Shown in pieces: positions 1 to 13,411 of a DNA stretch of 13,411 nucleotides (position 1 is its first letter; the number at the start of each line of letters is the position of its first letter). The position numbers were made by a program, and so were the translations under genes. The DNA is taken from IMG/VR virus record IMGVR_UViG_2548876950_000004, positions 1 to 13,411 of that record; one strand, written 5' to 3'. Source of the stretch: a virus. Lineage: Duplodnaviria; Heunggongvirae; Uroviricota; Caudoviricetes. The notes under the pieces are model-generated. The model was not told the origin of the DNA, did no database searches, and worked only from the letters and a program-made list of their open reading frames with translations.

Positions 1-54
1 CTGGCAGCCTGAGTTCACAGATAAAACACTCTCCAGGAAACCCGGGGCGGTTCA
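1..54 (-). mobile_element. Terminal inverted repeat of an IS3-family insertion sequence (element body lies left of the window)
   Basis: Positions 2-54 are the exact reverse complement of 13359-13411. Read inward the end begins TGAACCGCCCCGGG, the TG...-type terminus I recall for IS3-family elements such as IS629. The identity runs to the window edge and stops abruptly at 54/55. Confidence 0.5.
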
Positions 55-157
55 AAACGCCCATGATTTTACAGGCTTTTGATACGTTGCTGAGTTCTTC
101 AGCCAGATTGAGCAAACCGGCTTTGTGTTTGATAACGGGATTGGTAGTATGAAGCAT
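55..157 (-). pseudogene. N-terminal fragment of an HTH-type protein, truncated at the IS junction
   Basis: ATG at 155-157 (reverse strand) preceded by GAGGT. Translation MLHTTNPVIKHKAGLLNLAEELSNVSKACKIMGV then runs straight into the IS-end sequence. The LAEELS-VSKACKIMGV stretch looks like the first helices of an HTH motif. Confidence 0.35.
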
Positions 158-280
158 GAGAGTTACCTCGTGTTTTGTATAAGGATTCGACACCCATATC
201 AAAACCGGTAACTCTCAACCTTTCAAGGCTCAGTGTCAGATCAAGTCGCGACTAATACACTCAATTCCATCATAAACTTC

Positions 281-409
281 TCAGTTGTTAGCTTTTGCCG
301 AACTGGAAAGCGCCTGTTTAAACTCACTGAAGCTGAGAGCTTCTTCGCCTTCGGCAAGGCCTTCGAAGTATTCTTCGTAAGCCTTTTTCATGATTGTGTC
401 GAAATCCAT
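281..409 (-). CDS. Small hypothetical protein, 42 aa (possibly YdaG-like)
   Basis: ATG at 407-409 (reverse strand) with AGGTGA 5 nt upstream; translation MDFDTIMKKAYEEYFEGLAEGEEALSFSEFKQALSSSAKANN, stop at 281-283. Below the 60-aa ORF-track cutoff. Sits upstream of the repressor like the small genes of Rac-type prophages. Confidence 0.4.
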   Translation of the reverse strand: MDFDTIMKKAYEEYFEGLAEGEEALSFSEFKQALSSSAKANN

Positions 410-419
410 ATCACTCACC

Positions 420-566
420 TTAGTTTCTTTCCAACCAGCGACGTGCGCCAGCTTCGGTTTTAAACGATTTGCTTTTGGTATACGTCATGGCGGTGAATGT
501 GCCGTCCTGATTGGGAAACACGCCACATACCAGAGATTCGTTGTTGCCAAGATCGATAGTATCCAT
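420..566 (-). CDS. Small hypothetical protein, 48 aa (possibly YdaF-like)
   Basis: Internal start MDTIDLGNNESLVCGVFPNQDGTF... of the 420..629 ORF, with GAGGT 4-5 nt upstream. The longer 69-aa form has no obvious ribosome-binding site. Confidence 0.4.
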   Translation of the reverse strand: MDTIDLGNNESLVCGVFPNQDGTFTAMTYTKSKSFKTEAGARRWLERN

Positions 567-816
567 GTTGACCTCATTTCCCCTTAACGCCGGGTGGCGG
601 AACGTTTTATCTACTGCGCTTTGTATCAATCAACAACTGCCGTCATGTTCGTATGCCTCAGGCTGGCTACTTAGCCCTGTTCAGTGGCTGGATAACTCGA
701 GGTATTGTCCAGCCGTTCTCTGGTGGGGCGTTGTTTGGATATGCTTATTAAACACAATGCGTTTTCTTATGTAAACACGAAATGTGTTTTGTGGTGAGTG
801 TCATATGATGATGGTA

Positions 817-841
817 CAAAAAAGCCCGCTGATAGCGGGCT
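817..841 (-). terminator. Intrinsic terminator downstream of the repressor gene
   Basis: Hairpin AGCCCGCT-GAT-AGCGGGCT (823-841) flanked by an A-run on the plus strand (817-822), which is a U-run after the hairpin on the minus strand. Confidence 0.6.
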
Positions 842-871
842 GATTGGCATATTACTGTGATAGCAAGATCA

Positions 872-1291
872 TTACTCCGGTGGGGGATTATCTTTAAGCC
901 TGCCTCTCAAATATTTTTCTACATACTCATCGATTTCTTTTAGCCGGACTTCAAATAGCTCAATCATTCGTTGTTGTTCTGAGCCAGGTAGCTGGTTAAA
1001 CAACTCAAGAAGTTTTCGTTGGGATTCATTTAACCACAATTCAGAAGATTCCTGTTCTCCAAATAGGAGCTCAGGAGGAGATATGCCAAGTGCCTTTCCC
1101 AATACGACAGCGTCATGCACTCCAACATTTCTGCTGCCCGCCTCATAGTTACCTATACGCGATTGCGTCCATCCGCAGATTTCAGCAAGTTTTCCTTGAG
1201 ATAAACCAAGCTTCTGCCTGCGCTCTTTAAGACGCATTGCAATTTTGTCATTGAGCCTACTAGCGGCAATTTTTTCGTTTTCTTTTTCCAT
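872..1291 (-). CDS. CI-like prophage repressor, XRE-family HTH, 139 aa, no S24 peptidase domain
   Basis: HTH segment LGLSQGKLAEICGWTQSRIGNYEAG; divergently oriented to a Cro-like gene across a 96-bp operator region; C-terminal part is charged/coiled-coil like with no Ser-Lys autocleavage domain. Confidence 0.8.
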   Translation of the reverse strand: MEKENEKIAASRLNDKIAMRLKERRQKLGLSQGKLAEICGWTQSRIGNYEAGSRNVGVHDAVVLGKALGISPPELLFGEQESSELWLNESQRKLLELFNQLPGSEQQRMIELFEVRLKEIDEYVEKYLRGRLKDNPPPE

Positions 1292-1387
1292 TGCATCCTT
1301 GTATCACGAATCGTGATTTACATAAAACACAAAACAGCTTGACCATATAACACAAGGTGTGTTTAAAATTGTCATCGGAGGTTTTCA
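1292..1387. promoter_or_regulatory. Immunity-switch operator/promoter region between divergent repressor and cro-like genes
   Basis: Contains palindrome ATCACGA-A-TCGTGAT (1303-1317), imperfect palindrome AACACA-AGG-TGTGTT (1349-1363) and a TTGACC -35-like hexamer (1336-1341). Confidence 0.6.
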
Positions 1388-1630
1388 ATGAACAAAATTT
1401 CAACATATCGAAAACAGCTTGGGCTGTCTCAAAGACAACTTGCTGTTCAGTTAGGGTGGATACAAAGCCGACTGGCAAATTACGAAGCAAATTTTCGTAC
1501 CCCTGGACTAGAGGAGTGCAGAAAAATTGTTTCTACCCTTAATCGGCTTGGCGCTCATTGTGGACTTGACGATGTATTCCCCCCAGACGGTAAGCATAGC
1601 GAAAACAGCATAGGAGCGGTTGATTCATGA
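1388..1630 (+). CDS. Cro-like HTH regulator, 80 aa (YdaS-like)
   Basis: GGAGG 6 nt upstream of the ATG. HTH LGLSQRQLAVQLGWIQSRLANYEA shares the GW-QSR-NYEA recognition-helix motif with the repressor. Stop overlaps the next start (ATGA at 1627-1630). Confidence 0.75.
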   Translation: MNKISTYRKQLGLSQRQLAVQLGWIQSRLANYEANFRTPGLEECRKIVSTLNRLGAHCGLDDVFPPDGKHSENSIGAVDS

Positions 1631-2049
1631 AAATCAGGCATGAGCACATCGAATCAGTGTTGTTAGCCCTGGCAGCCGAAAAAGGGCAGGCGTGGGTCGC
1701 TAACGCAATTACTGAAGAATATCTGCGCCAGGGGGGCGGCGAATTGCCCCTTGTACCAGGCAAGGACTGGAACAATCAGCAGAATATCTATCACCGTTGG
1801 TTGAAAGGTGAAACGAAAGCGCAAAGGGAAAAAATTCAGAAACTGATCCCTGCGGTTCTGGCAATTCTTCCGCGCGAGCTGCGTCACCGACTCTGCATCT
1901 TCGATACCCTGGAACGCCGTGCATTACTGGCGGCGCAGGAAGCGTTGAGTACGGCAATTGATGCGCATGATGATGCAGTCCAGGCCGTTTACCGGAAAGC
2001 ACATTTCAGCGGTGGTGGGTCGCCCGGCGATTCTGTCGTAGTGCATTGA
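1627..2049 (+). CDS. YdaT/CII-like prophage regulatory protein, 140 aa
   Basis: Translationally coupled to the cro-like gene; N-terminus MKIRHEHIE and the position after cro match my recollection of the Rac ydaS-ydaT arrangement. Identity is from recalled family features only. Confidence 0.5.
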   Translation: MKIRHEHIESVLLALAAEKGQAWVANAITEEYLRQGGGELPLVPGKDWNNQQNIYHRWLKGETKAQREKIQKLIPAVLAILPRELRHRLCIFDTLERRALLAAQEALSTAIDAHDDAVQAVYRKAHFSGGGSPGDSVVVH

Positions 2050-2126
2050 TTGAAATTAATCGTGCCGGATTGTTTTGTTCGGTATCAGTTAAATGTAACG
2101 CTGCGAGCGTTACAAGGTGAAAACAA

Positions 2127-2909
2127 ATGGCTTCAAACTGGATAAAGCTCGAGGTTATTACGCCGGATAAGCCGGAAATATTCAGGCTTGCTGAGATTCT
2201 GAATATTGATCCAGATGCCGCATTAGGGAAGGTTATTCGCTTCTGGGCATGGGCGGATCAACAAATGATAGACGGTAATGCAGATTGTAACGCTCGCGGC
2301 GTTACAAAAAGTGCAATAGATCGCATCACTTTTATGGCTGGTTTTGCTGATGCGTTAATTCAGGTTGGATGGCTGATCGAAAATGACGGTGGGCTTTCTC
2401 TACCTAACTTTGAACGTCATAACGGGAAAAGCTCTAAAAAACGGGCGGTTACAAACGAGCGAGTAACAAAAATACGCGAACTGCAACGAAAAGGTAACGC
2501 TGCCAGCGTTACACAAACGGATCAAAAAGCGTTACCAGAGGAAGAGGAAGATATAAATACTGATCTCCCCCTAAATCCCCCTCGCCAAAAACGAGCGTCT
2601 AAAAAATTCGAGCCGGAGGCTATCGAGCTGCCTGACTGGTTGCCGGAAACACTCTGGCATGAGTGGTTTCAGTTCAGGCAGGCATTGCGAAAACCGATTC
2701 GAACGGAGCAGGGCGCTAACGGGGCGATACGGGAACTGGAAAAATTCCGTCAGCAGGGTTTTACACCTGAGCAGGTGATTCGACACAGCATCGCCAATGA
2801 ATACCAGGGCCTGTTCGCGCCGAAAGGTGTTCGGCCTGAGACGTTGCTCCGACAGGTTAACACCGTCTCGTTGCCGGACAGTGCGATCCCGCCAGGCTTC
2901 AGGGGGTAA
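2127..2909 (+). CDS. Replication initiation/primosomal protein, DnaT-like C-terminus (YdaU-like), 260 aa
   Basis: AGGTGA ribosome-binding site; sits directly upstream of the DnaC-like gene, as in the dnaT-dnaC and lambda O-P arrangements; C-terminal W/F-rich segment DWLPETLWHEWFQFRQALRKP; gene body carries repeated palindromes. Confidence 0.55.
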   Translation: MASNWIKLEVITPDKPEIFRLAEILNIDPDAALGKVIRFWAWADQQMIDGNADCNARGVTKSAIDRITFMAGFADALIQVGWLIENDGGLSLPNFERHNGKSSKKRAVTNERVTKIRELQRKGNAASVTQTDQKALPEEEEDINTDLPLNPPRQKRASKKFEPEAIELPDWLPETLWHEWFQFRQALRKPIRTEQGANGAIRELEKFRQQGFTPEQVIRHSIANEYQGLFAPKGVRPETLLRQVNTVSLPDSAIPPGFRG

Positions 2910-2915
2910 CGGACC

Positions 2916-3662
2916 ATGAAAAATATTGCGACAGGCGGTGTTCTTGAACGTATCCGTAAGCTGGCTCCGCAGCATGTAACCGCGCCGTACCGGACAGTGG
3001 ACGAGTGGCGAGAGTGGCAGCTTGCAGAAGGGCGAAAACGTAGCGAGGAGATCAACCGCCTGAATCGTCAGTTGCGGGTGGAAAAAATTCTGAATCGCTC
3101 AGGCATCCAGCCGTTGCATCGTAAATGCTCGTTTGCAAATTACCAGGTGCAGAACGACGGCCAGCGATACGCGTTAAGCCAGGCGAAATCCATCGCCGAT
3201 GAACTGATGACCGGGGGTACAAATTTTGCGTTCAGCGGAAAACCTGGTACCGGGAAGAACCACTTAGCGGCAGCTATCGGAAATCGCCTGCTGAAAGATG
3301 GCCAGACAGTGATTGTGGTTACTGTGGCTGATGTTATGAGTGCCCTGCATGCCAGCTATGACGACGGACAGTCAGGCGAAAAATTTTTGCGGGAACTGTG
3401 CGAAGTGGATCTGCTGGTTCTTGATGAGATTGGCATTCAGCGCGAGACGAAAAACGAGCAGGTGGTACTGCACCAGATTATTGATCGACGGACAGCGTCG
3501 ATGCGTAGCGTGGGAATGCTGACAAATCTGAACTATGAGGCCATGAAAACATTGCTCGGTGAGCGGATTATGGATCGCATGACCATGAACGGCGGACGCT
3601 GGGTGAATTTTAACTGGGAGAGCTGGCGTCCGAATGTCGTCCAGCCAGGAATTGCGAAGTAA
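2916..3662 (+). CDS. DnaC-like helicase loader, AAA+ ATPase (IstB/DnaC family), 248 aa
   Basis: Walker [16 protein letters not shown] and Walker [10 protein letters not shown]; size and placement after the initiator gene. Confidence 0.85.
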
Positions 3663-3684
3663 TTTTTACCGGGAGAAAAATTTA

Positions 3685-4446
3685 ATGGAGACTGTTTTTG
3701 ACGCACTGAAAGCAATGGGAAAAGCCACATCCATAGAACTTGCTGCGCGACTTGATATCAGTCGTGAAGAGGTACTGAACGAGCTGTGGGAACTGAAAAA
3801 AGCTGGTTTTGTTGATAAAACCGCGTACACCTGGCGCGTGGCTGAAAACAACGTTCAGCAGGAACAGTCAGCGCAGGCAGAACTGCCGGAAGAAACCACC
3901 ACAGCAACAGTAGCGAAAATCTCAGAGTGCGATTTAACCGCAACGATTGAACAACGCGGACCACAAACGGCTGATGAGCTGGCTACATTGTTTGATACCA
4001 CATCACGCAAAGTGTCTTCAACGCTGGCAATGGCAATCAGCAAAGGTCGTCTGATTCGCGTAAATCAGGGCGGTAAATTTCGTTACTGCATACCGGGCGA
4101 TAATTTACCAGCAGAGCCGAAAGCAGCATCGGTAGCGGAAACTGATGGTAAAGCCTTTCCTCAGCCTGCATGTGTTGCGTTACCAGTACAGGAAGCTGCA
4201 ACACAGGAAGATATTAAAACAGAAACGATGGCGGACATTGTGCAGTCGCTGCCATCGTTTACTGCAACGCGATCTGATGATTTGATTTTGCCATCGCTGC
4301 ATTTGGCAAACCGCGAACTGCGTCGGGCGAAAAATCATGTCCAGAAGTGGGAGCGTGTCTGCGCCGCGCTGCGTGAGTTGAACAAGCACAGGGATATTGT
4401 ACGACAGATTACTGATTCTTCCCGCCATGTTGCATCGGAAAAGTGA
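3685..4446 (+). CDS. Hypothetical phage protein with two winged-helix-like segments, about 253 aa
   Basis: Start chosen at ATG 3685 (GGGAGA upstream) to avoid overlap with the DnaC-like gene. Segments [30 protein letters not shown] and [35 protein letters not shown] resemble winged-helix DNA-binding folds. Confidence 0.55.
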
Positions 4447-4461
4447 TTGCCGGAGGCGCTT

Positions 4462-4854
4462 ATGGCAAAAGTATTTACACAAGAAGAGCGGGAAGAAGTG
4501 AAGGCGCGCATTGTGGAATTCGTGCGCCTGAGCGGACGAGAAACTTTTCGACAACTGGCAGATAAAACGGGTGTCAGTAAGACCGCTATTCGTCGTTTAT
4601 CTGGTGCGCTTGCGGCCAGTGGTGATGTCTGGCTCTCTGGTTGCGGGGTATTTCCATCAGAGCAGGCGTATCGCGTATGGCGTAAGACACCGGAGAAGGC
4701 TGCTGACCCGACACTGATTCGAAAGTTACCTGACGGAGAAATACGTCGTTACAACAGACGGCAGAACATAATTTGTCGTGAGTGCCGCCAGAGCGAAGTT
4801 ATGCAGCGTGTGCTGGCGTTCTATCGGGGAAACTTTCAGGAGGTGATGTTGTGA
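4462..4854 (+). CDS. Hypothetical HTH-containing protein, about 130 aa
   Basis: GGAGG 5 nt upstream of ATG 4462; HTH-like FRQLADKTGVSKTAIRRLSG; stop overlaps the next gene's start. Confidence 0.5.
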   Translation: MAKVFTQEEREEVKARIVEFVRLSGRETFRQLADKTGVSKTAIRRLSGALAASGDVWLSGCGVFPSEQAYRVWRKTPEKAADPTLIRKLPDGEIRRYNRRQNIICRECRQSEVMQRVLAFYRGNFQEVML

Positions 4855-5324
4855 GTGAGTCGGCTACCATTCTCGACATGTGCTGTGGCAGTCGCATGTT
4901 CTGGTTTGATAAGAATGACGAACGGGCGATATTTAGCGATATCAGAAAAGAAGAGCACACATTGTGTGATGGACGACGCCTGATTATCAGTCCTGACCTG
5001 ATAGCAGATTTTCGAGCATTACCATTTGCAGACGCATCGTTTCCGGTTGTTGTATTCGACCCTCCGCATCTTGAGCGTGTTGGTGATAACGCCTGGATGG
5101 GAAAGAAATATGGACGGCTGAATAAAGATACCTGGCGAGATGATTTGCGGCAGGGATTTAAAGAAGCCTTTCGTGTGTTGTGCCCACGCGGCGTTCTGAT
5201 TTTTAAATGGAATGAAACGCAAATACCTGTTCGCCAGATATTGGTACTGACCGACAGAAAACCTGTTATCGGTCAACGAACAGGAAAAAACGATAAAACC
5301 CACTGGATTATTTTTATGAAATAG
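4851..5324 (+). CDS. Putative small SAM-dependent DNA methyltransferase (N6-adenine type, DPPH motif), about 157 aa
   Basis: GTG start at 4851 with AGGAGG 6 nt upstream. Motif I-like ILDMCCGSRMF followed by motif IV-like VVFDPPHL, the order seen in gamma-type amino-methyltransferases. Confidence 0.45.
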   Translation: MSESATILDMCCGSRMFWFDKNDERAIFSDIRKEEHTLCDGRRLIISPDLIADFRALPFADASFPVVVFDPPHLERVGDNAWMGKKYGRLNKDTWRDDLRQGFKEAFRVLCPRGVLIFKWNETQIPVRQILVLTDRKPVIGQRTGKNDKTHWIIFMK

Positions 5325-5572
5325 GCATCCAGTGAGTAGGTTCGTAAGGTTACAGATGCGTATATCTGAATAATTAAATTCAGTTCTGTAAATAAAATTT
5401 AATCCTTAACCGGAGGGATTCCTGCACCCTCAGAACATCAGGAGACCGCCCGAAAGGGCGGTAATGAAAAATGGCTGAATGAACCAAATGGCTACAAAAC
5501 ACGATTACCGGAATTGAAACGGTAGTAGACGATAAATCGTTTGTATGTGATGAAATAGTATTCAAAATCGAT

Positions 5573-5938
5573 GTGGTTAAAAACGTACTTACCGCATTTA
5601 AAGTCGCGCTGGTATCGCTGGAAGCCGAACCGGTGACATGGCGATATCGCTACGTGAGAAAAGGCGTTACGAACTTTCAGGAGAAGCCGTGGGTTGGTGA
5701 CTGGAAATATGTACCGACAAAAGAGGATTGCAACGACAGGCCGAACTATGAAATTCAGGCGTTATTCACGGCCCAGCCTGTGCCACTGACACCCGAAGGA
5801 TTGATTAAAGCGGTGCGCTTCTATGAACAGGTTAAGAGTGAAAATCCGCCAGTCGAAACCGGAGCATGGAAAGACGCTGTTGACTGGGTGCTCAAAGAGG
5901 CTTGTCAGGCTGTAAACATTGGCATCAAAGGAGAGTGA
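5573..5938 (+). CDS. Hypothetical protein, 121 aa, start uncertain
   Basis: Long ORF with no internal Met; GTG start at 5573 lacks a clear ribosome-binding site. Leads a co-oriented, tightly packed cluster. Confidence 0.45.
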   Translation: MVKNVLTAFKVALVSLEAEPVTWRYRYVRKGVTNFQEKPWVGDWKYVPTKEDCNDRPNYEIQALFTAQPVPLTPEGLIKAVRFYEQVKSENPPVETGAWKDAVDWVLKEACQAVNIGIKGE

Positions 5939-5939
5939 G

Positions 5940-6131
5940 ATGAACGGACAAATCTCAATTGTTCGACCGGGAGCATGTGACGATTGCGAGATACGAATGA
6001 TTATTCGTCTGGCGATGGGGAAAACAATAACTGCTCTCATTACTCCAGAAAATCTCGCATTAGCATTAACAGGAAAGTCAGACCTGCCAGTAGAGCTAAA
6101 GCTGCGAAATGTTGAGATTAAGGTGAAATAG
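5940..6131 (+). CDS. Hypothetical protein, 63 aa
   Basis: ATG at 5940 with AAGGAGAG 5 nt upstream, two bases after the upstream stop; ends 2 bp before the next gene. Confidence 0.5.
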   Translation: MNGQISIVRPGACDDCEIRMIIRLAMGKTITALITPENLALALTGKSDLPVELKLRNVEIKVK

Positions 6132-6133
6132 CT

Positions 6134-7555
6134 ATGACCACTATTACCAAAGAGCGACTGCTGACAATCAAGCAGTGGCGCGAAACATACGGACCTGGTA
6201 GCAACGTTGTACTGCCAGCAGAAGAAGCGGAAGAACTGGCACGGATTGCACTGGCATCATTGGAAGCAGATCCAGTTAAACGAGTTAACTCAGATCAGAT
6301 GCACCGAGTCTGCTTAGAAGCTAATCGCTATTTAGATAAATATGACGCGATGGCGAAAGAGGTAAATAAGTTGCTTGGACGCATCGCCCCGCCAGCGCCA
6401 GTATTTAACGGCGAATACGGTGACGCATATCAGGGCGCTCGTGAAGACCTGTCCATCTGGAAACGGCGAGCGCTTGAAGCTGATGAGCACGTTCGGCGAC
6501 TGGAGCAAATCAATGACCACATGGTGAAAGAGGCGCAGGGAGAATCACGCATGGGCGAGCCTGTAATACGTGAGCCAGCACCGGTAGTGCCTGAAGAAGC
6601 AACTCCGGAAAACGTAGAAATGCTCTCTGGCTATGTTTCAACGTACAAATTAACCGATAGCGAGCGCGATATTGCTGCCGAAATATGGAACGCCTGCCGC
6701 GCCGCCATGCTTCAGTCAGGAAACTTTCGGGAAAACAAGAATTCGTCAACCAATAATTTTCGGGAAATCGAGGAAACGTCAACCAACTATCCGGCAATTC
6801 CTAGTGAGGTGTTGTCCGCAATCCTGAAGGTTGCCAGGATTCGTGCCGATTTCGATGATTTTGACGGTGACAGGCGAGGTATCGGTGATTGTCTGGATGA
6901 GGCTGAGCAAGAGCTTATCGTTACCATTAACAAATATGCCAGTCAGTTGGCAGCAGAACCGATAGCGACTAATGACGTTCGAGAGCAGCAGACAGCCGTT
7001 CCGCCAGTTCCGGAAATACAGGCTGATGTCGCGCAAGCAATTGAAAATCTCAAGCAGAAGCTAGTGGAATGTAATCGCTATAACTACTGCGCAGATGCAG
7101 TTAAAGGCGTAGAGGATGCCTGCCGTGCTGTTAGCTATAGCCAAGCCGACAATCAACCAGCATCTGGCAACCAGGCTGCCGAATCCAATCGCGGTAATGA
7201 GTGGACCGGCAATCCTGATATTGATAACGCCATCATCATGCTCGACCGCATAGATACGCTGGAAAATTGCGATGATGACCGTATTGAGGCTGTTAAGGCT
7301 GTTTTGCGTAGACTGGCTGGCAACTATCCGGTAACTCCGGATGGTTGGATAAGCTGTAGTGAGCGAATGCCGAATACCAAAACAGCCGTTCTTGTTGCCG
7401 TGGAGTTTGACAGGAAAGGTGACTGGCGAATGAAATGGGCTACTTACATCCCGGGGCATCCTGACGCTAATGATGGGTGGATAATTCCTGGTGCGTCGTG
7501 GAAACCGTCACACTGGATGCCGCTACCAGAACCGCCGCAGGAGGTGCGCCAATGA
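6134..7555 (+). CDS. Large hypothetical phage protein with DUF551-like C-terminus, 473 aa
   Basis: AAGGTGA ribosome-binding site; acidic, low-complexity central region; C-terminal WISCSERMP...SHWMPLPEPP matches the recalled DUF551 signature. Confidence 0.6.
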   Translation: MTTITKERLLTIKQWRETYGPGSNVVLPAEEAEELARIALASLEADPVKRVNSDQMHRVCLEANRYLDKYDAMAKEVNKLLGRIAPPAPVFNGEYGDAYQGAREDLSIWKRRALEADEHVRRLEQINDHMVKEAQGESRMGEPVIREPAPVVPEEATPENVEMLSGYVSTYKLTDSERDIAAEIWNACRAAMLQSGNFRENKNSSTNNFREIEETSTNYPAIPSEVLSAILKVARIRADFDDFDGDRRGIGDCLDEAEQELIVTINKYASQLAAEPIATNDVREQQTAVPPVPEIQADVAQAIENLKQKLVECNRYNYCADAVKGVEDACRAVSYSQADNQPASGNQAAESNRGNEWTGNPDIDNAIIMLDRIDTLENCDDDRIEAVKAVLRRLAGNYPVTPDGWISCSERMPNTKTAVLVAVEFDRKGDWRMKWATYIPGHPDANDGWIIPGASWKPSHWMPLPEPPQEVRQ

Positions 7556-7635
7556 TCTGGCCTGAAGCCTTTGCAATTACAGGCGTTGCTATAGCTATTG
7601 ATTTTTTAGTATATGTTATTTGTCGGTGGGGGTAA
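7552..7635 (+). CDS. Tiny hydrophobic peptide, 27 aa
   Basis: ATG overlaps the upstream stop (ATGA) with GGAGGTG upstream; translation MIWPEAFAITGVAIAIDFLVYVICRWG is a single predicted transmembrane helix. Below ORF-track cutoff. Confidence 0.4.
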   Translation: MIWPEAFAITGVAIAIDFLVYVICRWG

Positions 7636-7670
7636 AAACGTTCGCCGGGATTCACACCAAAGGAGGGAAT

Positions 7671-7775
7671 ATGTCGGATGATATTTCACTGGCAATGGAA
7701 GGTGCGCTGGCTGTTATTGCTGTTGTGGGCGTTTACTGCCTGGTTGTGTTTTTGATGGATCGACTAGGGAACTGA
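7671..7775 (+). CDS. Tiny hydrophobic peptide, 34 aa
   Basis: AAAGGAGGGAAT-ATG; translation MSDDISLAMEGALAVIAVVGVYCLVVFLMDRLGN with a central hydrophobic helix. Below ORF-track cutoff. Confidence 0.45.
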   Translation: MSDDISLAMEGALAVIAVVGVYCLVVFLMDRLGN

Positions 7776-7783
7776 ATTCATTA

Positions 7784-7805
7784 CGATATGGGAATTCCCA
7801 TATCG
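7784..7805. repeat. Perfect 22-bp palindrome CGATATGGGAATTCCCATATCG
   Basis: Exact self-complement with a central GAATTC, 9 bp after the 34-aa peptide stop and upstream of the hok locus; no T-run follows, so not a classical terminator. Confidence 0.7.
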
Positions 7806-7909
7806 GGTAAAAACGGTTTGCGGTAAAGCGAGAGTTAAGTAGAATTGCTGCGGGTGCTTGAGGCTATCTGCCTCGGGCATGCCACCGTAAGGCAGACAGA
7901 GAAAAGCCC

Positions 7910-7975
7910 CAGTTAACATTACGCGTCCGGCAAGACGCTTAACATTAATCTGAGGCCATATCTATGCTCTACACA
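7910..7975 (-). ncRNA. Expected position of the Sok-like antisense RNA of the hok locus (approximate, not delimited)
   Basis: Placed by analogy with hok/sok architecture, where the antisense RNA overlaps the leader and upstream start region. Promoter and 3' end could not be pinned from sequence. Confidence 0.25.
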
Positions 7976-8020
7976 CGTAGGTTAGCCTCTTACGTGCCGA
8001 AAGGCAAGGAGAAGCAGGCT

Positions 8021-8176
8021 ATGAAGCAGCAAAAGGCGATGTTAATCGCCCTGATCGTCATCTGTTTAACCGTCATAGTGACGGCACTGGTAACGAGGAA
8101 AGACCTCTGCGAGGTACGAATCCGAACCGGTCAGACGGAGGTCGCTGTCTTCGTAGACTACGAATCTGAGAAGTAA
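8021..8176 (+). CDS. hok: Hok/Gef-family type I toxin, 51 aa; in-frame upstream start at 7964 gives a 70-aa Mok-like form
   Basis: MKQQKAMLIALIVICLTVIVTALVTRKDLCEVRIRTGQTEVAVFVDYESEK has the hallmark Hok/Gef transmembrane segment and TRKDLCEV...GQTEVA motif; AGGAG upstream of ATG 8021. Confidence 0.8.
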   Translation: MKQQKAMLIALIVICLTVIVTALVTRKDLCEVRIRTGQTEVAVFVDYESEK

Positions 8177-8244
8177 GAGACCAGGCGGGGGAGTAATCTC
8201 CCGCCACCTCTGATGTGTCAGGCATCCTCAACGCACCCGCACTA

Positions 8245-8267
8245 AACCCGCTTCGGCGGGTTTTTTG
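8245..8267 (+). terminator. Intrinsic terminator at the 3' end of the hok transcript
   Basis: Hairpin AACCCGC-TTCG-GCGGGTT followed by TTTTTTGTT; a second GC-rich hairpin lies just upstream (about 8192-8210). Confidence 0.7.
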
Positions 8268-8451
8268 TTGCGTGCTGAATGCGCAGGGTGAAAAATAACC
8301 ATATATTTGATTATATACACAACAAAAAATAAAAGTCATTGTACCTGCACATTAAATAATCAAATATACAGCGTGAAATAAATATTTTTCAGATTAATAT
8401 TTTTGTCTCTATGTGGATATAACCGTTTGTACTTATAAACTCGGAGGCATC

Positions 8452-8664
8452 GTGGAAAAAATAAAGAAACTATTTAGTTGCAAATACGCAGTCATACGTC
8501 GTGATGACCTGTCAGTTATAGTCGAAATGGATTACTTCCCTGAAACCCCAAAATCAATGATGTATCGTAATGGTCGAAAGGCAATTTTTTTACCGATGAG
8601 GGTAAGTGACATTATGGGAAATGATAAACTGCTGGATGAATTGCGAGTCAGAGCATCCTGTTAG
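8452..8664 (+). CDS. Hypothetical protein, about 70 aa
   Basis: GTG at 8452 with GGAGG 4 nt upstream, preferred over the ATG at 8413 which lacks a ribosome-binding site; AT-rich promoter-like region upstream. Confidence 0.45.
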   Translation: MEKIKKLFSCKYAVIRRDDLSVIVEMDYFPETPKSMMYRNGRKAIFLPMRVSDIMGNDKLLDELRVRASC

Positions 8665-8735
8665 TATTGGCATTAATTCTGGTATACTACATAACGGGCT
8701 GAACACCCATTCTACTGCGCCAGCGGAGAACTACG

Positions 8736-9335
8736 ATGGCGCATATACAACTGGTCAAACAAACCTCTTCCGGATTACTTCTCCCGGCGACACCGGAGAG
8801 TTGCGATTTTTTGCATCAAATCAAAATAGGCGAGTGGATACACGCAGACTTTAAGCGTGTGCGTAACTACGCATTCCACAAGCGTTTTTTCAAACTCCTG
8901 CAACTGGGATTCGATTACTGGACTCCGGTCGGTGGGGCGATCACGCCTCGCGAACGAGAACTGCTGTCTGGTTTCGTTGATTACCTGTGCGAATCAGTTG
9001 GTCGGGAACACACGCCAGCCCTGAGTGATGCCGCAGAGCAATATCTGAATACAGTTGCGACACGCAGAACCCGGGATACGGCATTGTTAAAGTCGTTTGA
9101 GGCTTTTCGCGAGTGGGTAACCATTCAGGCTGGATTTTACACCGAACATTTTTATCCGGACGGTAGCCATGGGCGTCGGGCGAAATCCATCGCTTTTGCG
9201 AATATGGACGAAACCGAGTTTCAGCAGGTTTATAAATCTGTTCTGAATGTGCTGTGGAACTGGATTCTGTTCCGTAAATTTTCCTCTCCGGAACAAGTCG
9301 AAAATGTGGCCGCGCAGCTGCTGGAGTTTGCGTAA
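8736..9335 (+). CDS. Conserved lambdoid nin-region protein, 199 aa
   Basis: GGAGA 6 nt upstream of the ATG; stop overlaps the next start (TAATG); family assignment (DUF1367-like) is from memory only. Confidence 0.55.
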   Translation: MAHIQLVKQTSSGLLLPATPESCDFLHQIKIGEWIHADFKRVRNYAFHKRFFKLLQLGFDYWTPVGGAITPRERELLSGFVDYLCESVGREHTPALSDAAEQYLNTVATRRTRDTALLKSFEAFREWVTIQAGFYTEHFYPDGSHGRRAKSIAFANMDETEFQQVYKSVLNVLWNWILFRKFSSPEQVENVAAQLLEFA

Positions 9336-9625
9336 TGGTGGATTTACGTAAAGCGGCGCGGGGGCAGATGTGCACCGTCAGAATTCCTGGCTACTGCAAT
9401 CACGATCCGGAAACGTCTGTGCTGGCGCATTACCGACTGGCGGGAACGTGCGGAACAGCGATAAAGCCACACGATATGCAGGCAGCGATTGCCTGTAGCT
9501 CGTGCCACGATTTAATCGACGGGCGGGTAAAAACCGGCGATTACACCAAAGAAGAATTACGCCTGATGCATGCAGAAGGTGTTTTTCGCACACAAGAAAT
9601 CTGGAGAAAGGAGGGATATTTATGA
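9335..9625 (+). CDS. YbcO-like (DUF1364) cysteine-rich protein, putative nuclease, 96 aa
   Basis: Size and several cysteines (CTVRIPGYC...CGT...ACSSCHD) fit the YbcO family that sits before Q in lambdoid prophages; translationally coupled on both sides. Confidence 0.55.
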   Translation: MVDLRKAARGQMCTVRIPGYCNHDPETSVLAHYRLAGTCGTAIKPHDMQAAIACSSCHDLIDGRVKTGDYTKEELRLMHAEGVFRTQEIWRKEGYL

Positions 9626-10176
9626 TTTACCCAACGAATACAGGAAAAAGCGGAGAACACCTTCGTCTCACCACGCTGGAAAGTGTCTGGATTCAGGGAA
9701 AACTACGTATGTGGGGGCGCTGGTCGTATATTGGCGGCGGTAAGACGGGAAATATGTTTAACCAGTTGCTGACCTCTAAAAAGCTAACAAAAACGGCAAT
9801 TAATGAGGCGCTCCGGAGGATGAAAAAAGCAGGTCTGGACAAACCTGAACTTGAGGCTTTTTTGCGGGATATGATCAACGGCAAGCAAAAAAGCTGGCTG
9901 GTGCATTGTACTGATGCAGAGGCGTTATGCATTGATCGGGTGATTAGTGAAGTGCTGGCAGAACACCCAGGATTGATTTGTATCCTCCGGCAAAGATATG
10001 AAGGGCGGGGGATGAGTAAGCGCAAAATGGCTGAATTGCTAAATGATGCACACCCTGAGTGGTGTTTTCGGACGTGCTGCAGTCGGGTAGATGTATGGCT
10101 AAATCTTGCTGAATATATGCTCTATCTGCCGATGCGTGATGCATTCTCTTCCGGGTATTTAAAAACTGTCTGTTGA
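9622..10176 (+). CDS. Putative late-gene antiterminator Q, 184 aa
   Basis: Called mainly from position: last gene of the nin-like block, immediately followed by a strong promoter overlapping its stop and a short terminated leader. Strong AAAGGAGGG ribosome-binding site. Sequence family not confirmed. Confidence 0.5.
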   Translation: MIYPTNTGKSGEHLRLTTLESVWIQGKLRMWGRWSYIGGGKTGNMFNQLLTSKKLTKTAINEALRRMKKAGLDKPELEAFLRDMINGKQKSWLVHCTDAEALCIDRVISEVLAEHPGLICILRQRYEGRGMSKRKMAELLNDAHPEWCFRTCCSRVDVWLNLAEYMLYLPMRDAFSSGYLKTVC

Positions 10177-10202
10177 CTCAATCTGTTATCCGGGGCTATA
10201 TT
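10173..10202 (+). promoter_or_regulatory. PR'-like late promoter (TTGACT-N18-TATATT)
   Basis: -35 TTGACT at 10173-10178 overlaps the stop of the upstream gene; -10 TATATT at 10197-10202. Confidence 0.55.
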
Positions 10203-10264
10203 CCTCACGCGCCAGCAAAATCTGGCGTCGGGATTAGGAACCCCGGATAGAGACCGCGACAGAC

Positions 10265-10287
10265 ACACGCCGCGAGCGTGTTTTTTA
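10265..10287 (+). terminator. tR'-like intrinsic terminator ending a short (about 80 nt) leader RNA
   Basis: Hairpin ACACGC-CGCGA-GCGTGT followed by TTTTTTATT, about 60-80 nt downstream of the PR'-like promoter. Confidence 0.65.
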
Positions 10288-10449
10288 TTGTCGTATGCAC
10301 GCGCACATCTGAATTATGGTGGGGCGTATGGGGGAGCTGAAAAGCTCGCCGGTTGGTTTCCCGGTAGTTCCTAACCCTGTACGTCTCACCACCCGATGAT
10401 TAGGAACCTGACGGTGGTGATGGTTTAGAAACCACCAGAGGGCGTCATT

Positions 10450-11031
10450 ATGACAACTCAAATTTCTGTTGAAACTCTCTCCCCGATCACCCATAACCAG
10501 ATTCCTGTTATTACCACCGAACTTTTGGCGCAGTTGTACGGTGCTGGAGTTAAGAACATTCAAAATAACTACGCCAGAAATGCTGAGCGCTTTATTGAAG
10601 GAAAGCATTTTTTCAAAGTGGCTGGCGATGCCCTGAAAAATTTGCGGGTAGCTTTAAACTACTCACAAAATTTGCAACCATCTTTAAGAGGGTTACAAAT
10701 TTCCCCGAAAGCCCGCTCCCTCATCCTCTGGACAGAACGCGGAGCAGCCCGTCATGCCAAAATGCTGGAAACCGATCAGGCGTGGGATGTGTTCGAAAAG
10801 CTGGAAGACTGCTATTTCAGACAAAAGGATCCGTCAGCGCCAGTTTCATGCCAGAAAAGTTACGACACGCGAGTTCTCTGTTATCAGAGAGGCGGTGTCA
10901 CTGTTTCCACAATTCAGTTACGGGATGATGATATTGTTATTTCCCTTGAGTCATGGCTGGAACTGGCGAGAGCCAATGGTTGGTTTGTTGTTCGCAGAGA
11001 TAAACTGGTGGAAAGGTTGATGCAGCTTTAA
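10450..11031 (+). CDS. ORF6N/KilA-N-like domain protein (antirepressor-type regulator), 193 aa
   Basis: N-terminal IPVITTELLAQLYGAGVKNIQNNYARNAERFIEGKHFFKV matches the recalled ORF6N consensus (LAELYG...RN..RF...F). Confidence 0.55.
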   Translation: MTTQISVETLSPITHNQIPVITTELLAQLYGAGVKNIQNNYARNAERFIEGKHFFKVAGDALKNLRVALNYSQNLQPSLRGLQISPKARSLILWTERGAARHAKMLETDQAWDVFEKLEDCYFRQKDPSAPVSCQKSYDTRVLCYQRGGVTVSTIQLRDDDIVISLESWLELARANGWFVVRRDKLVERLMQL

Positions 11032-11128
11032 AAAAGTTCTTGCATTTTTGCACATAAACTGCTTCAATTCCTGTATGCTTCGCAAAGCTGTATCGCGAGG
11101 CGAAACGCAAGTTTTTTTCGCACAAGGA

Positions 11129-11151
11129 AGCCACCGGAAGGTGGTTTTTTT
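11129..11151 (+). terminator. Intrinsic terminator after the ORF6N gene
   Basis: Hairpin CCACC-GGAA-GGTGG followed by TTTTTTT. Confidence 0.65.
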
Positions 11152-11274
11152 GTGTCCGTAATATACAGCAGCGCAATAAATTCGCTGGTGGTTATTAATA
11201 CCGTTCTTTCAGCTTGCTGGCTTTTTCGACAAGAGTTATTGGTATGTCACGTTAACCGGAAAGGGTAAAAAGAC

Positions 11275-11472
11275 ATGCTGAAACAGCAGGATATGACAGA
11301 AACCGCCAGAGTTGTGTTTGATGAATTAAGCGTTACCGAACCGGCGACAGTCGGGGAGATTGCGCAGAATACTTACCTTTCACGCGAACGCTGCCAGTTA
11401 ATACTGACCCAGCTGGTTATGGCGGGTCTGGCAGACTATCAGTGCGGTTGTTACAGACGCATTCAGTCCTGA
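11275..11472 (+). CDS. Small putative DNA-binding protein, 65 aa
   Basis: ORF with a weak AAGGG ribosome-binding site; the VGEIAQNTYLSRERCQLILTQLVMAGL segment looks like a winged-helix/HTH. Confidence 0.4.
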   Translation: MLKQQDMTETARVVFDELSVTEPATVGEIAQNTYLSRERCQLILTQLVMAGLADYQCGCYRRIQS

Positions 11473-11505
11473 AGGCTTTTTATTTGTGGTAAATGGGCGG
11501 CTGGT

Positions 11506-11513
11506 GGGGGGGG
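11506..11513. repeat. Homopolymeric G8 tract upstream of the AraC-family gene
   Basis: Eight consecutive G (GGTGGGGGGGGCGG) about 95 bp upstream of the ATG at 11608. Confidence 0.8.
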
Positions 11514-11607
11514 CGGCACCTGTCAGTCCTTTGCTTATGTGTTGATGATAATTTACCTTTTGGGGCTATAATTGAGCTAACCAATTGCTAATGAAAGTAA
11601 AATTATA

Positions 11608-12321
11608 ATGGCTGTTGTCTGTTCAGTTATCATGGTTTGCTCCCCAATTAATATTTTTCTTGAAAAGGATACGTTGTCACTTAAGCCAGGCTCAGTCGTT
11701 CTGGCCACCAAATGCATCAGGGAGCTTTTCCTTATGCATTATGGCAAAGTTAAAATTGTCGATATAAGCGAATCCGTCGTAAGTCAATATCTGGAAAGTC
11801 AGCATAAGCTGACGAGGACTCGTCTGACTGACATTCCGCTTTACCTGTTGCTGGAACCCAACAATCCTGCGTTGGCTGCGGCTTTAATTACCAGCCAGGG
11901 ATTTTCCGGAGAGGTCACGGATATGTTTCTTATGATGGCCTGCCTGTCTCTGTTTGAAACAGATGAACGGATGTCATTGTTTTTAAGTGGATGTTTATCC
12001 AGCATAAGTGCCAAAGTCAGGGCGATAATTCAGACAGATATATCAGCAAGCTGGACGCTTGGTGCGATTGCTCTACAGTTGCATATGAGTGAGAGTTTGT
12101 TAAAGACAAAACTGAAAAATGAAGGGGGCATGTTCAGTCGCTTGTTGCTGGAAGAGCGGATGCGTGTTGCTGTAAATATGTTATGTTCCCGGCATGGATA
12201 TGGACAGGCTGTAGCAGAAAAATGCGGTTATTCAAGCAGGTCCTACTTTATTTCTGTATTTCACCGCTATTATGGCTTCCCGCCAGACAGATATGTATCC
12301 AGGCAAGGGCTTGATTATTGA
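11608..12321 (+). CDS. AraC/XylS-family transcriptional regulator, 237 aa
   Basis: C-terminal double-HTH typical of the family (SWTLGAIALQLHMSESLLKTKLK...YGQAVAEKCGYSSRSYFISVFHRYYGFPP); located in the cargo slot between Q and the lysis genes. Confidence 0.75.
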   Translation: MAVVCSVIMVCSPINIFLEKDTLSLKPGSVVLATKCIRELFLMHYGKVKIVDISESVVSQYLESQHKLTRTRLTDIPLYLLLEPNNPALAAALITSQGFSGEVTDMFLMMACLSLFETDERMSLFLSGCLSSISAKVRAIIQTDISASWTLGAIALQLHMSESLLKTKLKNEGGMFSRLLLEERMRVAVNMLCSRHGYGQAVAEKCGYSSRSYFISVFHRYYGFPPDRYVSRQGLDY

Positions 12322-12349
12322 TTTTCATCTGATTATTATTTTTTGGCTC

Positions 12350-12425
12350 GGCCCTTTAGCTCAGTGGTGAGAGCGAGCGACTCATAATCGCCAGGTCGCT
12401 GGTTCAAATCCAGCAAGGGCCACCA
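12350..12425 (+). tRNA. tRNA with CAU anticodon (Ile2/Met type, ileX-like)
   Basis: Cloverleaf by hand: acceptor GGCCCTT/AAGGGCC, anticodon loop CTCATAA, T-loop TTCAAAT, 3' CCA. Close to the host ileX sequence as I recall it. Confidence 0.7.
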
Positions 12426-12426
12426 A

Positions 12427-12503
12427 CCGCCACTAGCTCATCAGGAAAGAGCGTCAACCCTTTAAGTTGAGTGTGCGAGGTTCGAGTCCCCGGTGGCGGT
12501 CCA
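12427..12503 (+). tRNA. Atypical tRNA-like gene, anticodon UUU (Lys-like), possibly a pseudo-tRNA
   Basis: Acceptor CCGCCAC/GTGGCGG with CCA end, D-arm and TTCGAGT T-loop present, but C at position 33, a C1:G72 start and one T-stem mismatch. Confidence 0.45.
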
Positions 12504-12505
12504 GT

Positions 12506-12581
<76 letters not shown>

Positions 12582-12584
12582 TAT

Positions 12585-12659
<75 letters not shown>

Positions 12660-12866
12660 GTTAGAGTCTTTCAGTCTGCGATGATGGGAAATCCCGGAGT
12701 GACTGAAAGACGTTTAGGTTATGAATGATCGCTTTTTTTTGCAAAATTGCTGTGCAGAAATACTAACCTTCGGGCAGGCGATCATTCATAAGCACTCTGC
12801 TTTTATTCCGATTAACTGTGGGTGGTTTGTTGGATAGAGTGCTTTCCTGACTGTAGATCCAATTTC

Positions 12867-12891
12867 GCCCGCTTTTGCGGGCTTTTCTTTT
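12867..12891 (+). terminator. Intrinsic terminator downstream of the tRNA cluster
   Basis: Hairpin GCCCGC-TTTT-GCGGGC followed by TTTTCTTTT. Confidence 0.7.
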
Positions 12892-12951
12892 CAAATCCCT
12901 TTCATCTCTCAGTGTAAAACTACGCCATCCGTTATTTGCGGAGGTGAGGCT

Positions 12952-13167
12952 ATGAAATCCATGGACAAAATTTCAACGGGCATTGCCTACGGCACCTCCG
13001 CAGGCAGTGCTGGCTACTGGTTTTTACAGTGGCTTGATCAAGTCAGTCCGTCACAGTGGGCTGCGATTGGTGTACTGGGGAGTCTGATTCTGGGCTTCCT
13101 GACTTATCTGACAAATCTGTACTTCAAAATCAGAGAAGACAAGCGTAAGGCTGCACGGGGAGAGTAA
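12952..13167 (+). CDS. Phage 21-type class II holin (pinholin) with dual-start motif, 71 aa
   Basis: [27 protein letters not shown]...[13 protein letters not shown] closely matches S21 as I recall it, including the M-K-S-M dual start (12952 and 12961); GGAGGTGAGG ribosome-binding site. Confidence 0.85.
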
Positions 13168-13171
13168 TTCA

Positions 13172-13358
13172 ATGACTCAAAACTATGAAGTGATTGTGAA
13201 AGGGATCCGCAATTTTGAGAATAAAGTTACGGTAACTTTAGCGTTACGGGACAAAAAACGCTTTGACGGTGAAATTTTTGACCTGGACATCTCGCTGGAC
13301 CGTGTTGAAGGTGCCGCGCTGGAGTTTTATGAGGCAGCAGCCAGAAGGAGCATCAGAC
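13172..13358 (+). pseudogene. Lysis-region gene (possibly YdfR-like) truncated by the IS insertion
   Basis: ATG at 13172 with GGGGAGAG upstream; ORF MTQNYEVIVKGIRNFENKVTV... runs in frame into the IS-end sequence at 13359 with no stop before the window edge. Family name from memory only. Confidence 0.4.
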
Positions 13359-13411
13359 TGAACCGCCCCGGGTTTCCTGGAGAGTGTTTTATCTGTGAAC
13401 TCAGGCTGCCA
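13359..13411 (+). mobile_element. Terminal inverted repeat of an IS3-family insertion sequence (element body lies right of the window)
   Basis: TGAACCGCCCCGGGTTTCCTGGAGAG..., the exact reverse complement of window positions 2-54. Confidence 0.5.

Follow-up and report, generated by a model that had tools for sequence, protein, structure and literature searches.

A psrB allele in a lambdoid prophage and the slippage-prone G-run upstream of its predicted promoter

The prophage-encoded secretion regulators (Psr) PsrA and PsrB are characterised links between prophages, GAD acid resistance and type III secretion in enterohaemorrhagic Escherichia coli (EHEC). The gene ECs_1087 was named psrA by the laboratory that described these regulators (PMC13502914). 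According to reviews, PsrB (z2104, in O-island 57, OI-57) is 90% identical to PsrA, and both proteins raise GadE and YhiF, with the result that type III secretion is repressed (PMC10877973, PMC8565820); PsrB has been described as binding the hdeA and gadE promoters and increasing acid resistance (PMC10877973). Deletion of psrA alters secretion, whereas deletion of psrB does not (PMC10877973, PMC8565820). The subject of the present analysis is a psrB-type gene at 11608..12321 (plus strand, stop codon included), and the run of eight G residues (G8) upstream of it at 11506..11513, in a stretch of 13,411 nucleotides, the window, that comprises positions 1 to 13,411 of the IMG/VR virus record IMGVR_UViG_2548876950_000004 (Caudoviricetes). 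An earlier note on this DNA had proposed that slippage in the G-run could make the promoter phase-variable. The evidence favours a plainer reading, which we consider likely: the gene encodes a known regulator, PsrB, and the G-run, situated outside the promoter, is a mildly unstable, largely clonal homopolymer without the pattern of a contingency locus.

The 237-residue product is a YdeO/GadX-like transcription factor of the AraC/XylS family; the assignment to that family was already made in the earlier note and is borne out by Pfam, where HTH_AraC scores 49.8 bits against a cut-off of 26.6 and HTH_18 scores 39 bits against 33.6. The family's characteristic C-terminal region, some 100 residues long and containing two helix-turn-helix motifs, is present, phrog_1450 spans residues 1-236, and the best relative of solved structure is the DNA-binding domain of GadX (3mkl, residues 134-233, E 5e-19), followed by Rns. 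The likely architecture is an N-terminal domain of about 130 residues joined to a C-terminal double helix-turn-helix, on the branch of YdeO, GadX and the prophage regulator AppY. Among NCBIfam models, YdeO (NF007407) matches best and does so from end to end (profile positions 1-230 on residues 1-229), with GadX second. Both of these are chromosomal genes. Against equivalog cut-offs of 348 (YdeO) and 500 (GadX) the psrB-type protein scores 106.9 and 88.3, far too little for an ortholog, and it is to be regarded as a relative of the two.

Much closer matches come from the two copies of the psr upstream region that E. coli O157:H7 genomes carry, one in prophage Sp4 (ECs_1087 in strain Sakai) and one in Sp11 (ECs_2191). 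The window protein shares 236 of its 237 residues with ECs_2191 and as many with the copy in strain TW14359, and its sole difference from ECs_2191, H196Y, falls in the linker joining the two helix-turn-helix units; with the extended form of ECs_1087 (PsrA) it shares 216 of 237 (91%). These identities to named proteins place it in the Psr family, and by sequence it is a psrB allele nearly identical to the PsrB of O157:H7. The earlier note had thought of prophage AraC-like regulators of acid resistance and virulence, and the gene does belong among them, as a one-residue variant of PsrB. There is good reason to equate ECs_2191 with z2104 (PsrB), because the second O157 copy and ECs_1087, compared in their 195-residue forms, are 89.7% identical (175/195), in agreement with the published 90%, and because psrA has been named as ECs1087. 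The Sp11 neighbours of ECs_2191 are nleG5-2, nleG6-2, nleG2-3 and pchB, of which the three nleG genes are, we assume, OI-57 genes. The host of the window allele is not O157:H7: the window is 100% identical to NZ_CP148401.1 from the chicken isolate E. coli Z1323CEC0019, where it represents a decayed lambdoid prophage and where RefSeq gives the gene the same bounds, 11608-12321. A distant relative, ECs_0287 in Sakai Sp1, aligns with the psrB-type protein over its full length at 37% identity and is probably PatE (z0321), an assignment of our own; it is likewise a prophage-borne AraC/XylS-type protein, but it is far removed in sequence, lies in a different prophage and position, and lacks the psr upstream region.

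The start codon, left open in the earlier note, can now be placed. In-frame ATGs occur at 11608, 11632 and 11734, and the frame is closed upstream by a TAA at 11578-11580, so that 11608 is the earliest possible start. From there the protein begins MxVxCSVI. Homologs with as little as 39% identity all keep M1, V3, C5 and S6, and nearly all keep V7 and I8; the motif recurs as MAxxCSVI in ECs_0287 at 37%. Residue 1 aligns with position 1 of the NCBIfam YdeO profile, and the ATG column at 11608 is kept when the upstream DNA of psr homologs is aligned. By these comparisons the gene starts at 11608. Conservation of the N-terminus down to 37-39% identity means that the 195-residue models that start at ATG 11734, in which form the O157 gene is mostly entered in databases, are too short; they include Sakai ECs_1087 and ECs_2191 (L005:28804-29391, L017:32933-33520) and a cluster of 955 database sequences, and they lack the 42 codons at 11608..11733 (plus strand). 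The ATG at 11734 was considered as a start, a Shine-Dalgarno-like GGGAG lying 9 nt upstream of it here (GGGCG in psrA), and was rejected because the preceding 42 codons are conserved as protein.

Does the G-run belong to the psr promoter? A sigma-70 promoter is predicted at 11545..11572 on the plus strand, with a -35 ATGATA (11545-11550), a 16-nt spacer and a -10 TATAAT (11567-11572), together matching the consensus at 10 of 12 positions. The -10 hexamer (TATAAT or TATACT) is kept in 7/7 aligned psr homologs, including those at 58-63% identity, which show no other relationship in their upstream DNA. The same alignment of seven homologs shows no conservation beyond about -40, from which it follows that the psr cassette starts close to the -35 of its promoter and leaves the G-run outside. 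The gene would then be a self-contained "moron" cassette, and the G-run, with 31 nt between its end and the -35 predicted downstream, would sit in a 60-nt spacer that separates the terminator of the preceding 65-residue open reading frame (ORF) from the psr promoter, without being part of the cassette. A scan of both strands found no promoter with the G-run in its spacer; the tract occupies neither a -35/-10 spacer nor a core element, as the tract of a phase-variable promoter would. It is also non-coding: no ORF of at least 50 codons crosses it, and the one frame that extends into the corresponding position elsewhere is Sakai ECs_1086, which is frameshifted. As for a G-quadruplex, the pattern offers only three GGG runs and would allow a two-tetrad structure at best. 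Folding of 11440-11640 gave no RNA structure signal (z = 0.14), and Rfam has no family at 11473-11607, its matches lying elsewhere in the window.

The tract is exactly G8 on the plus strand at the place where the earlier note had seen it, and it is the only G or C run of seven or more in the window. That note had also called it unusual, a description that holds for the species in that G.C runs of 8 bp are described as outliers in E. coli and as hot spots for indels (PMC8510543), but not for the composition of the window, since 30 of 200 dinucleotide shuffles contain a G8. Immediately upstream, and sharing two bases with it, is an exact Chi octamer, GCTGGTGG, at 11500..11507 (plus strand), whose last two G's open the run. 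In psrA, STEC309, UMNK88, the Stx2k phage and Stx2a phages the position of the run is occupied by GGGTGTTAG; by this comparison the G-run is the derived state, and it probably arose in one psr lineage through T/A-to-G changes in the ancestral GGGTGTTAG beside the Chi site. Two related alleles carry it: the window allele, whose flanks are those of O157:H7, O121 and O145, and a sister allele with two flank substitutions, present in O26, O111 and others. The O157:H7 psrB locus in Sp11 has the same upstream region as the window, G8, Chi, weakened terminator (described below) and promoter included. In psrA the promoter is nearly identical from -35 to ATG, and between the Chi site and the ATG the two paralogs differ at the G-run, in a single base close to the predicted start site and in another in codon 2.

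To survey tract length, exact 70-74-mers differing only in the number of G's were searched against 5,426 complete E. coli genomes, under an E-value limit that admits full-length matches only; the counts are records, each taken at its best place. For the window allele there are at least 1 record of G6, 28 of G7, 287 of G8 and 13 of G9, and for the sister allele 8 of G6, 264 of G7, 4 of G8 and at least 3 of G9. Non-modal lengths therefore account for about 13% of the window allele, where G8 is the mode, and about 5% of the sister allele, where G7 is, the changes being of one base in either direction. As a control, a psrA-type 74-mer from the paralogous locus was run against the same genomes, the one other G8/G9 tract available (Sakai terminase, L005:40314-40322) being coding and present in several copies. 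That tract, a G9 run inside the terminase large-subunit gene ECs_1106 of Sp4, may be a hot spot for frameshifts in a packaging gene. The control 74-mer was exact in 532 records, with 29 more in the 95-99% identity band, and two records sampled from among these 29 were both free of indels. The G-run thus varies more than the control and is a real hot spot for indels. Variation is also greater for the longer run than for the shorter, the pattern predicted by the exponential climb of the E. coli indel rate with run length (PMC8510543).

Most of the variation follows lineages. The G7 records listed come mostly from O145 or O145:H28 genomes, G9 is found in 3/3 assemblies of strain 86-24 and in both clonal OkiPb isolates, and RM9872 and RM9872-C1 are both G7. 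The call of G8 in the window is secure and does not reflect an assembly slip, since G8 is the reading in five independent draft assemblies with the P0001 allele (99% identical), in TW14359 and in the finished, Sanger-sequenced Sakai reference. The earlier note had named an invariant length across isolates as a result that would speak against phase variation; the length does vary, from G6 to G9, but by one base in about 5-13% of records and for the most part clonally. Like the tracts of Neisseria opc/porA, Haemophilus hif and Bordetella fim, which drive phase variation of promoters, that of psrB is a G/C homopolymer upstream of a gene and differs in length among isolates. Unlike them, it does not lie between -35 and -10, has only 7-9 bases, is absent from paralogs with the same promoter and is fixed at its modal length in most genomes. 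A phase-variation device in the promoter is hard to reconcile with a tract 31 nt away from the -35 and outside the conserved block, in whose place psrA has GGGTGTTAG in front of a near-identical promoter. What the survey describes would now be an ordinary slippage-prone homopolymer with occasional one-base changes, clonally inherited and commoner for G8 than for G7, and its length changes most likely have little or no effect on psrB expression.

Several observations pull the other way. The psr promoter is a prediction and its start site is inferred, and the equation of ECs_2191 with z2104 depends on the 90% figure, on the named psrA and on the assumed place of the neighbouring nleG genes in OI-57. 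Among near-identical isolates, Z1767 has G7 and Z1766 and Z1768 have G8, a difference that a faster switch would also produce, although it could also reflect recent slippage or a homopolymer error in long reads. The tract is moreover the main difference in cis between psrA and psrB from Chi to ATG, and since the two deletions have unlike phenotypes, an effect of the tract on psrB expression is possible. Could the G-run, then, tune the promoter from a distance? Placed about 54-61 nt upstream of the -10, it might set the helical phase or local stiffness of the DNA that separates the core promoter from an upstream protein site or H-NS filament, and one-base slippage would then yield heritable variants of high and low psrB expression, with precedents in the tracts upstream of the -35 in Bordetella fim and Neisseria nadA. 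Polymorphism from G6 to G9 in two alleles, above the control at the paralogous locus, would suit this idea, as would the isolates that differ in length despite near-identity, the two single bases that are all that separates psrA from psrB between Chi and ATG apart from the tract, and the 26-bp G+C-rich island that the tract forms at the border of a promoter window of about 34% G+C; the differing knockout phenotypes of psrA and psrB (PMC10877973, PMC8565820) point the same way. The tract nevertheless lies outside every predicted promoter spacer and outside the conserved cassette, most psr alleles do without it, 87-95% of genomes keep to the modal length and the variants are largely clonal, and no upstream binding site was recognised. 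Seven or eight G's are also short for high-frequency slippage in an enterobacterium proficient in mismatch repair, and we consider such tuning unlikely. A paper on the small RNA HnrS that deals with psrA (as ecs1087) reports no cis element near psr (PMC13502914).

The opposite doubt, that the tract is truly invariant at G8 (G7 in the sister allele) and its variation mostly an artefact of long-read homopolymer calling, draws on the sporadic G7 calls among near-identical isolates of one study (Z1767 against Z1766/Z1768, Z1814 against Z1831/Z1832) and on the makeup of the survey, many of whose complete genomes are presumably long-read assemblies. Variants that repeat within clones and across independent assemblies (the three G9 assemblies of 86-24, the G7 pair of RM9872, the G7 of O145:H28) are not expected of such errors, the five drafts and Sakai are unanimous for G8, and in comparable data variants are scarcer for the G7 allele than for the G8 allele, which makes an artefact very unlikely. 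A third possibility moves attention from the G-run to its neighbour: the Chi sites, through RecBCD, may protect or recombine phage DNA near the joints of cargo, the G-run being a mutational by-product. A second exact octamer lies at 11184-11191 on the plus strand, so that the two flank the 65-residue ORF. Two same-strand octamers compare with 0.37 expected in the window, and both are conserved in the Stx2k and Stx2a loci, the latter with six plus-strand Chi sites in 3.3 kb (L016:695-3302); the site at 11500-11507 is present at the psrA locus too, and homology between psr phages and methylase phages fades within about 40 nt downstream of it. Yet the enrichment is marginal (11 of 200 shuffles reach two, p ~0.055), the site at 11500-11507 is broken in UMNK88 (GCTTGTGG) and in a 78% homolog (GCTGGCGG) that have kept the cassette, the module boundary is nearer to 11545 than to Chi, and nothing ties Chi to psr expression; we give the idea little credence.

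The last alternative concerns the terminator between the 65-residue ORF and psr, a hairpin (11459-11476) followed by a T-run that covers the stop codon of that ORF (11459..11485, plus strand). A C-to-A change at 11461, which also turns the antepenultimate residue of the ORF from L to I, breaks a G-C pair and reduces the hairpin to -3.9 kcal/mol, from -10.5 and -8.9 in relatives, where it makes a good terminator; the A is common to all copies with window-type flanks that were examined, whether G7 or G8 and including O157:H7 TW14359, whereas in psrA the hairpin is intact. It might follow that psrB is expressed mainly by read-through from upstream, with the tract as transcribed leader, and the position of the gene downstream of a Q-like antiterminator would agree with this. 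Against it stand the -10 hexamer conserved in all homologs and a strong terminator further upstream, at 11131..11152 on the plus strand, where CCACCGGAAGGTGG and a T7 run fold at -15.1 kcal/mol (z -3.5); the scan had returned only the minus-strand reading of that stem, and the plus strand was read from the sequence. Expression mainly by read-through is accordingly a slim prospect. More plausibly psrB has two routes of transcription, one from its own predicted promoter in the lysogen and one by Q-modified read-through after induction, because the gene has the late antiterminator Q on one side and the lysis genes on the other.

The surroundings of psrB are those of a lambdoid prophage, as the earlier note had seen, with a Q-like late antiterminator at 9622..10176, tRNA genes at 12350..12659 and a class II holin at 12952-13167 downstream of them. 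Location in a lambdoid prophage between the late antiterminator and the lysis genes, in the company of tRNAs, is typical of Psr genes, and the order Q, 65-residue ORF, psr, tRNAs recurs in Sp4, Sp11, STEC309, UMNK88 and others. The comparison of this position with the cargo slot of stx was also well founded, because phage phiSTEC1575-Stx2k (L015:4902-7225) has a psr homolog just upstream of tRNAs and stx2k, and in Stx2a phages (L016:3425-4483) the same slot after the 65-residue ORF is filled by a DNA methylase gene, followed by tRNAs and stx2; one genome (L022:360-2223) has the methylase and a 63%-identical psr homolog in tandem. The upstream border of the slot, the Q-like gene (plus strand; phrog_753, E 2e-80; DUF1133 in RefSeq), is of the same DUF1133 type as in Sp11, and its homologs in loci L009-L013 match Phage_antitermQ weakly. 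The first 447 nt of the gene are 85% identical to the Sp11-type Q of O157:H7 (L009:205-759), while its last 110 nt and the downstream leader have no match there, which suggests a recombinant antiterminator with another C-terminus and another late-promoter region. The 65-residue ORF (11275..11472, plus strand; phrog_331, E 1e-36) encodes a winged-helix-like protein with a weak match to Pfam TrmB, under the cut-off, and always stands ahead of the cargo slot; it is paired with psr behind three unrelated Q families and also occurs in Stx2 phages. In Sakai Sp4 (ECs_1086, 79 residues) and in UMNK88 it is frameshifted. Homology of this ORF to RgdR was considered and rejected, RgdR having 99 residues and belonging to a different island (OI-51).

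Other cargo around psr varies from prophage to prophage. The four tRNA genes of the window (plus strand; ARAGORN, Rfam and RefSeq) have anticodons CAT (Ile according to RefSeq), TTT (Lys), TGT (Thr) and TCC (Gly), and the lysis genes come directly after them. The array Ile(CAU)-Lys(UUU)-Thr(UGU)-Gly(UCC) differs from the Ile-Arg of O157:H7 Sp11 and from the ileZ-argN-argO of Sp4; exchange of the tRNA cargo is independent of psr. In the stretch from Q to the cassette the window also differs from the O157:H7 psrB locus in having a module of IsrK/C4-ant type (10196-11031), in which Rfam matches c4-a1b1 targets at 10196-10249, the isrK Hfq-binding RNA at 10209-10286 and the C4 antisense RNA at 10312-10396. 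The isrK RNA is preceded by TTGACT-18-TATATT (10173-10202) and has a terminator at 10265-10281, and an ORF6N anti-repressor gene (10450-11031) closes the module; homology to the O157:H7 locus is back from position 11030. Elsewhere in the window there is a hok/sok pair, the sok RNA at 7852-8026 (Rfam, 112.6 bits) overlapping a Hok/Gef ORF at 7964-8176.

For the prophage regulators themselves, the 195-residue models omit 42 conserved residues, which matters for anyone cloning or modelling PsrA or PsrB. The G-run is a documented polymorphic site, G6 to G9, that differs between EHEC lineages, in itself a small new fact. There is a faint chance that the derived run, possibly with the weakened terminator, makes psrB expression differ from that of psrA and that slippage produces heritable differences among lineages; if so, G7 in O145:H28 and G9 in 86-24 and other O157 strains would shift the set-points of acid resistance and type III secretion among EHEC. 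A run that affected expression would offer simple genetic access to the differences in acid resistance between strains, although we judge this unlikely. As for the regulator, its near-identity to O157:H7 PsrB makes it most likely that it binds the gadE and hdeA promoters and turns on glutamate-dependent acid resistance, and in strains that carry the LEE island (locus of enterocyte effacement) psrB would, by analogy with the literature on the O157:H7 protein, lower type III secretion through GadE.

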